Source: Escherichia coli 042
GTDB lineage: Bacteria; Pseudomonadota; Gammaproteobacteria; Enterobacterales; Enterobacteriaceae
Length of the DNA: 64,000 bases
Assembly (NCBI RefSeq): GCF_000027125.1
Contig: NC_017626.1
Reading direction: 5' to 3' (one strand)
Each line of letters begins with the position of its first letter. Within the stretch, counting starts at the first letter, position 1. Position numbers and translations under genes: made by a program. Under the pieces are notes generated by a model. That model made no database searches, was not told where the DNA came from, and saw nothing but the letters and a program-made list of their open reading frames with translations. Below are positions 53,309 through 53,742 of the stretch, piece after piece.

Positions 53309-53332
53309 TTAGCCACGGATGGCTAATTTTTG
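53309..53332. terminator. Bidirectional terminator shared by the cargo operon and the convergent membrane-protein gene
   Basis: TTAGCCA-CGGA-TGGCTAA hairpin then TTTTTG. Confidence 0.65.
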
Positions 53333-53742
53333 TTCTTTGCTCTCATCCACAGGTAAAGAAGGGCAATAACAAGACAAAAAACAGAGAATAGATAACCTAC
53401 CTCATATGGTGCGCCAAAAAAATTAGCTATTGATACGGGCAAAAAAGCTGAAGCGATCAAAATTGAAAGGCAAAAAATAAGCCCAGTAATATAGTTTATT
53501 AAATTCTTAAATGAGAAATGTTTTGCTTGATTTACGGTCTTAGCGAATGATCGCTTAACGACGGATAAAAGCAAATAGATGGCGACAGTTGCTAATGCCC
53601 CTTTCCACCAGTCTGGATATAGTTTTGCGACAACCAGACCAAGGAAAACCATGATGACAGCCTGAGCATTCACACCAACCCTCCCTTTAGCGTTGTTTAG
53701 AATGGCAATCATCATATATCCAAGACATGGCATTTGGTACAT
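53323..53742 (-). CDS. Small multi-pass membrane protein
   Basis: 139-aa ORF with about four hydrophobic helices; start codon uncertain. Confidence 0.5.
   Translation of the reverse strand: MYQMPCLGYMMIAILNNAKGRVGVNAQAVIMVFLGLVVAKLYPDWWKGALATVAIYLLLSVVKRSFAKTVNQAKHFSFKNLINYITGLIFCLSILIASAFLPVSIANFFGAPYEVGYLFSVFCLVIALLYLWMRAKNKN

Follow-up and report, generated by a model that had tools for sequence, protein, structure and literature searches.

The sieA gene of phage P22 is a proven inner-membrane exclusion gene, and mutations that escape SieA lie in the C-terminal regions of gp16 and gp20 (PMC10883804). It is carried by only 22 of the 66 sequenced P22-like phages (PMC10883804), and no description was found in the literature of what fills its position in other P22-like phages and satellites. 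A stretch of 64,000 nucleotides from Escherichia coli 042 (contig NC_017626.1; hereafter the window) poses this question for one locus. Within a satellite island of the window, a small gene for a predicted membrane protein lies on the minus strand, convergent with a homologue of P22 gene 16 (Table 1). What is this protein for? The reading favoured here, to which about an even chance is given, is that it acts as an inner-membrane exclusion factor, a functional analogue of SieA but not its homologue. This reading rests on positional, architectural and evolutionary evidence. The reality of the gene, its start, its predicted helices, its synteny, its cassette behaviour and its lack of homology are established computationally.

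Start and conservation of the membrane-protein gene

The first-pass annotation of the locus reported a product of 139 amino acids. An open frame of 139 codons does exist on the minus strand (53323..53742), and the conserved start within it, a GTG at 53673, gives 116 residues instead. Direct reading of the sequence showed GGGAGG followed, after a spacer of 6 nt, by this GTG. Distant full-length homologues all open at the equivalent position, with MN.Q or MQGQ, and a GGAGG-like motif precedes the start in most loci whose upstream DNA was read (Yersinia, Edwardsiella, L008, L013 and H10407). In Yersinia and Edwardsiella, the DNA 5' of the corresponding GTG is unrelated to that of E. coli and GGAGG is retained; the 23 codons upstream of GTG 53673 show no conservation in either. 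In addition, a common E. coli variant of the gene (at least 1,000 contigs) has ATG at the GTG position and is annotated with 116 residues. In E. coli CAVP746, an identical leader and the same GTG open a different protein (MNQLKRLVVSGLLFASFGANA followed by E....) with a canonical Sec signal peptide. As this signal peptide is canonical only with translation from the GTG, the start of the membrane gene is placed there too. On the strength of the homologue starts, the retained GGAGG, the ATG variant and the CAVP746 signal peptide, the protein most likely consists of 116 residues starting at GTG 53673. A start at ATG 53742 (139 residues) was rejected in favour of this conserved GTG with its Shine-Dalgarno sequence, and the PGAP start at M11 (129 residues) was rejected as a probable over-extension. 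The segment counted as coding in both longer calls is most likely a 5' leader that is common to alternative cassettes.

Substitution patterns indicate that the gene is real and under purifying selection. The Nei-Gojobori ratio of non-synonymous to synonymous substitution rates (dN/dS) is 0.125 against the Yersinia copy (dS 1.36), 0.138 in a second comparison involving Yersinia and 0.42 against the Edwardsiella copy. Helix 1 of the protein bears the family signature LLGLIVAKLYP, which is kept in members with only 25-40% overall identity; in those codons, the proportion of synonymous differences (pS) is 0.6-1.0 and that of non-synonymous differences (pN) is 0.02-0.24. Since the synonymous sites of helix 1 are saturated, the motif is held by selection and not by recent recombination. 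The matched stretch was checked in 40 sampled E. coli genomes, and in each it is covered by an annotated coding sequence (CDS) that is not flagged as a pseudogene.

About four hydrophobic helices had been noticed at first reading, and topology prediction agrees: hydropathy analysis gives four hydrophobic peaks, and AlphaFold2, run on a 13-sequence alignment, places helices at approximately residues 3-18, 22-50, 55-85 and 90-115 (mean predicted local distance difference test, pLDDT, 75.6; predicted template modelling score, pTM, 0.42). A conserved lysine lies within helix 1. The loop between helices 2 and 3 contains five Lys/Arg residues and the C-terminal tail (RAKNKN) three, whereas the remaining turns, YPDWWKG and GAPYEVG, are about 7 residues long, aromatic, and neutral or acidic. 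By the positive-inside rule, the Lys/Arg-rich loop and tail point to an N-in/C-in topology, which is likely for this protein and would leave next to nothing in the periplasm. The protein is predicted to reside in the inner membrane.

Distribution and fixed synteny

A profile search of 1.84 billion representative proteins recovered only 15 relatives of the membrane protein. The family is tiny and confined to Enterobacterales, where it was seen in E. coli, Salmonella, Yersinia and Edwardsiella, and all sources name the protein 'hypothetical' or 'prophage protein'. Two members have UniRef identifiers ending in ECOK1 and ECO45, which we take to be the extraintestinal pathogenic E. coli strains UTI89 and S88. 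Among 5,426 complete E. coli genomes, 226 (about 4%) hold at least 80% of the gene at no less than 94% identity. Approximately 83 further E. coli genomes match its N-terminal part only, at 60-80% identity, as expected for a second subtype, and yet others have the shared leader alone.

The genomic surroundings of the family were compared in 22 contexts, comprising 11 individually examined loci and 11 IMG/VR loci. In every one, the family gene is convergent with a gp16 homologue across a gap of about 16-24 nt (18 nt in the window). Co-occurrence with the cargo operon had been suggested at first reading as a check, and for gp16 it was found, bar one decayed island described below. Contexts of satellite type are the window, Edwardsiella (L007), L008, enterotoxigenic E. 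coli (ETEC) H10407 and the IMG/VR loci L021-L024, L026, L027 and L031. The others are P22-like prophages, recognised as such by the presence, in the available stretch, of genes for portal or coat, gp10, tailspike or Arc/Ant. In the complete P22-like prophages of Yersinia (L006), E. coli JCM 20135 (L017) and L028-L030, the family gene has gp16 on one side and the tailspike gene on the other; gp10 is still present in L025, and Arc/Ant genes in L013 and L018. The sole exception to gp16 linkage is the decayed island of E. coli 2013C-4081 (L003 12010-12399, minus strand), from which everything from int through gp16 has been deleted. The membrane gene survives there as an intact CDS, together with a helix-turn-helix (HTH) gene and PerC, adjoining ykgL; such survival is as expected for a gene that benefits its host.

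A hairpin between the convergent stop codons

The gp16 homologue ends with TAA at 53302-53304 on the plus strand, and the TAG of the membrane gene (53323-53325) falls within the right arm of the hairpin TTAGCCA-CGGA-TGGCTAA. An opposite-strand gene whose stop lies inside the hairpin had been described from the sequence alone, and these positions bear it out. The same description had the hairpin serve as a terminator for both genes. In a consensus scan of 53000-54500, it is the sole terminator-like site, on the plus strand only, with TTTTTGTTCTTT after the stem. The hairpin therefore resembles an intrinsic terminator for the plus-strand operon, where a T-run follows the stem; the minus strand lacks a U-tract, and a true bidirectional terminator is unsupported for that reason. 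In reverse complement, the T-run (53327-53339) gives the final codons of the membrane protein, AAG AAC AAA AAT (K-N-K-N). The same nucleotides thus encode a basic tail and supply the U-tract of gene 16, which places one stretch of DNA under two constraints. A Lys/Asn-rich C-terminal tail is present in most family members.

Between the two stop codons, 11 loci keep the core CCAnGGAyGG regardless of cargo, P22 and the E. coli HS1 prophage among them. In a 22-column alignment of these loci, stem pairing amounts to 80.5%, against 10-44% in slid-partner controls, and four base pairs are changed on both sides in a compensatory manner. The covariation score of 0.356 compares with 0.198 +/- 0.049 after shuffling, and none of 500 shuffles reached it. 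Pairing and covariation together argue that the hairpin is a conserved feature of the 3' end of gene 16. On their 3' side, the cassettes discussed next are bounded by this hairpin.

The position as a cassette hot spot

Judged by comparison of the loci, the position next to gene 16 (the slot) is a hot spot for cassettes that share a leader, a start codon and the hairpin. A close relative of the island in the window is EcCIMP1, a phage-inducible chromosomal island (PICI) of E. coli MP1. Homology between the two breaks within gp20 at 49938 and resumes at 53748, just past the leader, the C-terminal part of gp20, the whole of gp16 and the slot having been replaced as a block. The slot of EcCIMP1 (L002 11749-12447, minus strand) encodes, in the orientation of gp16, a predicted lipoprotein of 232 residues (MIKNLLLILSLSLLAGC..., lipobox LAGC). 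Neither a homologue in 50,697 phage genomes (tblastn) nor a family match was found for it, and it is a candidate determinant of the unmapped superinfection immunity of EcCIMP1. CAVP746 has a gp16 with 98% identity over the C-terminal 200 residues, and after it comes a Sec-secreted protein with the same leader, ribosome-binding site and GTG. This periplasmic protein has relatives at 30-33% identity in phages Emek (P22-like) and ST-35, adjoining the repressor gene in HK446 and Huey, and as Sf6 gene 38, which likewise stands by a prophage repressor. A second four-helix subtype of the family (type 2) occurs in ETEC H10407 and two metagenomic loci; it has 25-31% overall identity to the window protein (type 1), with helix 1 in common. 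Among sequenced phages, N7 has the closest gp16 (66% identity), and its slot holds a 106-residue single-helix protein. All slot occupants examined are envelope proteins, namely SieA types A and B, types 1 and 2 of the present family, the periplasmic protein, the lipoprotein and the N7 protein.

The two subtypes are partitioned by the C-terminus of the neighbouring gp16. Type 1 accompanies gp16 ending in ...YES..RNALLRLANTPKGSTAYDRAI... in 18 of 18 cases, and type 2 accompanies gp16 ending in ...W..F.NSLP...KRTI.R.GII.WLS... in four of four, with divergence within each gp16 class down to about 60% identity. The P22-type C-terminus is also paired with SieA A and B, the periplasmic protein and the N7 protein. 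Such a partition would fit recognition of the gp16 C-terminus by the membrane protein.

Comparison with SieA and other known systems

In P22, the gene order 14-7-20-16 is followed after 22 nt by the convergent sieA, and in the HS1 prophage a type B sieA stands in the same place after 21 nt. The family gene likewise lies between gene 16 and gene 9 homologues and is convergent with gene 16, P22-like prophages included, and a conserved short hairpin separates gene 16 from the slot gene in both. SieA is a small multi-pass inner-membrane protein of P22-like elements with 3-4 helices, and the family product is predicted to be a protein of this kind with four. Moreover, the family subtypes track the gp16 C-terminus, a region where SieA escape mutations occur. 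The differences concern the proteins themselves: the family protein has 116 residues, against 162-200 or more in SieA, arranged as four tightly packed helices with no soluble segment, and carries its own signature.

Scans of PHROGs (permissive, E up to 10), NCBIfam, PADLOC and Pfam gave no relevant match to the membrane protein, and a profile search of PDB matched no solved structure. Fold matches to DUF3147 and AtpZ/AtpI have E values of at least 0.5 and poor template modelling scores. A GtrA-like flippase subunit (PF04138) was rejected, there being no Pfam match, an E value of 3.3 for the GtrA/DPMS fold and no gtrB or gtrC nearby. A phage holin was likewise rejected, with Phage_holin_3_6 at E of about 7 as the only match and no endolysin or spanin gene on the island. 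T4 Imm is a small phage inner-membrane protein thought to stop DNA transfer across the cytoplasmic membrane; the present protein differs from it in phage lineage and topology, and the permissive PHROG scan gave no relevant match.

Proposed function

According to the favoured reading, the gene would be a moron-type cassette in the sieA slot of P22-like prophages and EcCIMP1-like satellites. The moron features are a GC content of 38% against 47% in the gp16 and gp20 genes, its own ribosome-binding site and the flanking hairpin. A resident prophage or satellite would express the four-helix protein into the inner membrane, and superinfecting P22-like phages would be kept from finishing DNA delivery. 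The step affected would probably be the membrane-proximal part of the gp16/gp20 conduit, as with SieA. The reading is favoured by the synteny with sieA, by selection on a predicted four-helix membrane protein, by the moron features, by the envelope nature of all slot occupants examined, by the pairing of subtypes with gp16 C-termini, by the superinfection immunity that the sibling island EcCIMP1 adds, and by the intact gene in 2013C-4081. We infer the resting-state expression, the inner-membrane location, the exclusion activity and its target. The first-pass annotation had left the choice among immunity, exclusion and receptor blocking. Exclusion fits best with the position and orientation of sieA, while the other two are unlikely or weakened: a protein with periplasmic loops of only some 7 residues and a predicted site in the inner membrane is unlikely to block a receptor, and immunity to the island's own cargo is taken up below.

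Several results weigh against an exclusion function. Neither type 1 nor type 2 was matched by tblastn in the 50,697 phage genomes. The protein is not recognisably related to SieA: BLASTP against P22 SieA gave E 0.57, hhalign against a SieA alignment of types A and B (type C is not in it) gave a probability of 0.3%, Pfam PF26849 (SieA) matched none of 13 family members, PHROG 7745 (SieA) did not match the membrane protein, and the SieA cytoplasmic motif FxRYPxEAxxFNK is absent from both the protein and the family alignment. Homology to SieA was rejected on these grounds. Foldseek of the AlphaFold2 model against BFVD and AFDB50 gave a significant match only to the protein itself, D3H2B5 (E. coli 042, 'prophage protein'). 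Unrelated morons also occur between genes 16 and 9, such as YafO and a Clp protease in L017, and position in the slot is therefore no proof of function by itself. The partition of subtypes with gp16 classes could equally be mere linkage across the 18-nt gap. No sigma-70 promoter was found 5' of the membrane gene at the standard threshold, the best site in a relaxed scan having 8 of 12 matches, which leaves resting-state expression as a supposition. Finally, the immunity phenotype of EcCIMP1 required a Kapi1 lysogen (PMC11773190). For this reason, and because the slot cassette is a different one, that immunity is not directly transferable to the present island.

Among the rival explanations, the one with the best claim, though an unlikely one, is an envelope lysogenic-conversion or moron function that has nothing to do with P22-type DNA entry, for instance defence against colicins or other types of phage, tolerance of stress or the handling of small solutes, the slot merely tolerating insertions. 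YafO and the Clp protease between genes 16 and 9, the lack of homology to any exclusion protein and the free swapping with unrelated envelope proteins beside the same gp16 all suit it. It accords poorly with a tiny family, limited to Enterobacterales, whose gene is found only in P22-like modules and convergent with gp16 in each of the 22 contexts, and whose subtypes track the gp16 C-terminal classes. An abortive-infection or membrane-depolarising four-helix channel comparable to lambda RexB, which would kill or arrest the infected cell, is improbable. A small four-helix protein with a conserved lysine in helix 1, encoded in a slot that shows moron features in both satellites and prophages, would be of the right kind; against this, there is no adjacent sensor or partner gene, about 960 bp upstream are gene-free, and PADLOC and PHROG gave no match. 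RexB itself needs RexA.

Slightly less probable still is a self-immunity or handling factor that would protect the membrane from, or assist, the island's own gp16/gp20. The tight linkage to gp16, the partition of subtypes with its C-terminal class and the block-wise difference of the gp20 C-terminus, gp16 and slot between the island and EcCIMP1 speak for it. It is weakened by the persistence of the intact gene where gp16 has been deleted (2013C-4081) and by its replacement with a secreted protein beside the 98%-identical gp16 of CAVP746. Furthermore, a gp16 homologue is encoded in 162 of the 50,697 phage records, yet the family in none of them, and the convergent orientation means that the gene is not co-transcribed with the late genes. 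That the open frame is due to chance, or that the region is a non-coding leader or terminator without protein product, is very improbable. The region is AT-rich, no promoter was detected and databases say hypothetical only; opposed to these stand a dN/dS of 0.125 across genera, the conserved start codon and ribosome-binding site, an amino-acid motif kept over saturated synonymous sites and the non-pseudogene annotation in all 40 sampled E. coli genomes.

A more specific and rather speculative proposal, which we consider improbable, is a 'lock and key' arrangement, in which the satellite's gp20 C-terminus/gp16 variant would be the key and the inner-membrane gatekeeper in the slot its cognate lock. 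The satellite would load its own gp20/gp16 variant into transducing particles, and carriers would exclude helper-type P22-like phages. Particles with the satellite's own ejection proteins might still be admitted, or rival satellites might be specifically excluded. The two subtypes would then be specificity determinants that read the co-segregating gp16 C-terminal class.

An exclusion factor of the favoured kind would belong to a class already known, that of small exclusion-type membrane proteins encoded in the sieA slot of prophages or satellites. If phage exclusion is indeed its function, it would represent a second, unrelated way to block the gp16/gp20 DNA conduit and would offer a specific candidate for how EcCIMP1-type satellites bring about their unexplained superinfection immunity. 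The cassette hot spot, with its shared leader, start codon and hairpin, could then be mined for more envelope-level anti-phage genes. This is relevant to phage therapy and to the typing of E. coli by P22-like podoviruses. For satellites with ejection-protein genes and for the sieA slot, EcCIMP1 alone was found in the literature; no description of the family, its presence on EcCIMP1-type satellites or the slot cassette architecture was found there.

The host island and its ejection-protein genes

Gene content and nucleotide identity identify the host island as an EcCIMP1-like PICI. In an identical locus of E. coli SCU-316, the genes comprise an integrase, an AlpA-like HTH protein, AntA/B, Ash, a TOPRIM-DUF927 primase, DUF2824, three ejection-protein genes, the membrane gene, a second HTH protein, PerC and a Doc-type toxin. 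Capsid, tail and lysis genes are absent from the island. Identity to EcCIMP1 is 98.2% over 40641-49938, that is, 9.3 kb from the AlpA-like HTH gene through the start of gp20, and 97.5% over 53748-55647, or 1.9 kb beyond the slot; both elements have gp14, gp7, gp20 and gp16 homologues, the second HTH gene and PerC. They differ in the C-terminal part of gp20, gp16 and slot cargo, and in integration site, which is yicC-dinD here and tRNA-Thr in MP1. A 12-nt direct repeat, GGTGTACATAAT, occurs at 38066-38077 (after yicC) and at 57971-57982 (before dinD), where about 0.06 matches would be expected by chance in the two regions searched, and is a candidate core of the attachment (att) site. The element bounded by it measures about 19.9 kb, near the 19,963 bp of EcCIMP1. 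Helper-dependent excision and transduction have been demonstrated for EcCIMP1 itself only, in experiments where the P22-like Kapi1 mobilised it (Pick et al. 2025, PMC11773190); it also adds superinfection immunity against this helper without a recognised defence system (PMC11773190).

Table 1. Positions of the features discussed, in window coordinates unless a locus is named.
Feature	Position	Strand	Remarks
Membrane-protein CDS	53323..53673	-	GTG start at 53673, TAG stop 53323-53325, 116 aa
Shine-Dalgarno GGGAGG	53680..53685	-	6 nt 5' of the GTG start
In-frame upstream extension	53674..53742	-	Counted as coding in the 139-aa and 129-aa (PGAP) calls; most likely 5' leader
Hairpin TTAGCCA-CGGA-TGGCTAA	53309..53326		7-bp stem, 4-nt loop, between convergent stops
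P22 gp16 homologue, 701 aa	51199..53304	+	PHROG families 770, 29864, 29117
P22 gp20 homologue	49778-51199	+	PHROG and PGAP annotation of identical locus
P22 gp7 homologue	49101-49778	+	PHROG and PGAP annotation of identical locus
P22 gp14 homologue (DUF2824)	48646-49107	+	PHROG and PGAP annotation of identical locus
EcCIMP1-like PICI (by gene content and identity)	38066..57982		About 19.9 kb, between yicC and dinD
CAVP746 alternative cassette	L015 6589-6984	-	Sec-signal periplasmic protein, about 110 mature residues
Direct repeats CAGTACGCGC, five copies	53790..54165		Repeat search; stretch kept in EcCIMP1
Doc (death-on-curing) family toxin gene	56267-56728	-	Far end of the island

That the cargo operon encodes homologues of ejection proteins had been raised as a supposition at first reading, and PHROG matches to gp14, gp7, gp20 and gp16 now support it; the gp14/gp7/gp20 block (48646..51199) matches families 651, 598 and 917. 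In the gp16 homologue, the N-terminal and middle part (residues 65-411) matches a PHROG family with the description transglycosylase, whereas the C-terminus belongs to the P22 type (YES..RNALLRLANTPKGSTAYDRAI). Its identity is 30% to P22 gp16 and 60-98% to the gp16 proteins that adjoin other family members. A satellite that has no capsid, tail or lysis genes thus possesses its own full gp14-gp7-gp20-gp16 set.

Other features of the island

In an Rfam scan of the island, three matches exceeded the gathering score and none of the matches lay near the membrane gene. An int-alpA RNA lies at 39403-39469 (plus strand), directly after the integrase gene, and isrK and C4 antisense RNA lie at 42478-42555 and 42618-42705 (plus strand), within the region of the 'ash family protein'. 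The latter two suggest that the island may carry an antisense immunity module of P1/P7 type. The gene upstream of the Doc gene encodes a hypothetical protein of 337 residues (PGAP, 56737-57750, minus strand), which is not a typical small Phd antitoxin; its open frame comprises 351 residues and reaches 57792.

The direct copies of CAGTACGCGC are found in the roughly 960 bp, devoid of genes, that separate the membrane gene from the HTH gene at 54706-54891 (minus strand), and three of the five form part of a 23-nt unit, ATTTyGyGACmAGTACGCrCrCG. This repeat-bearing stretch 5' of the membrane gene is 97.5% identical in EcCIMP1, and the repeats could be iterons for replication or an operator array.

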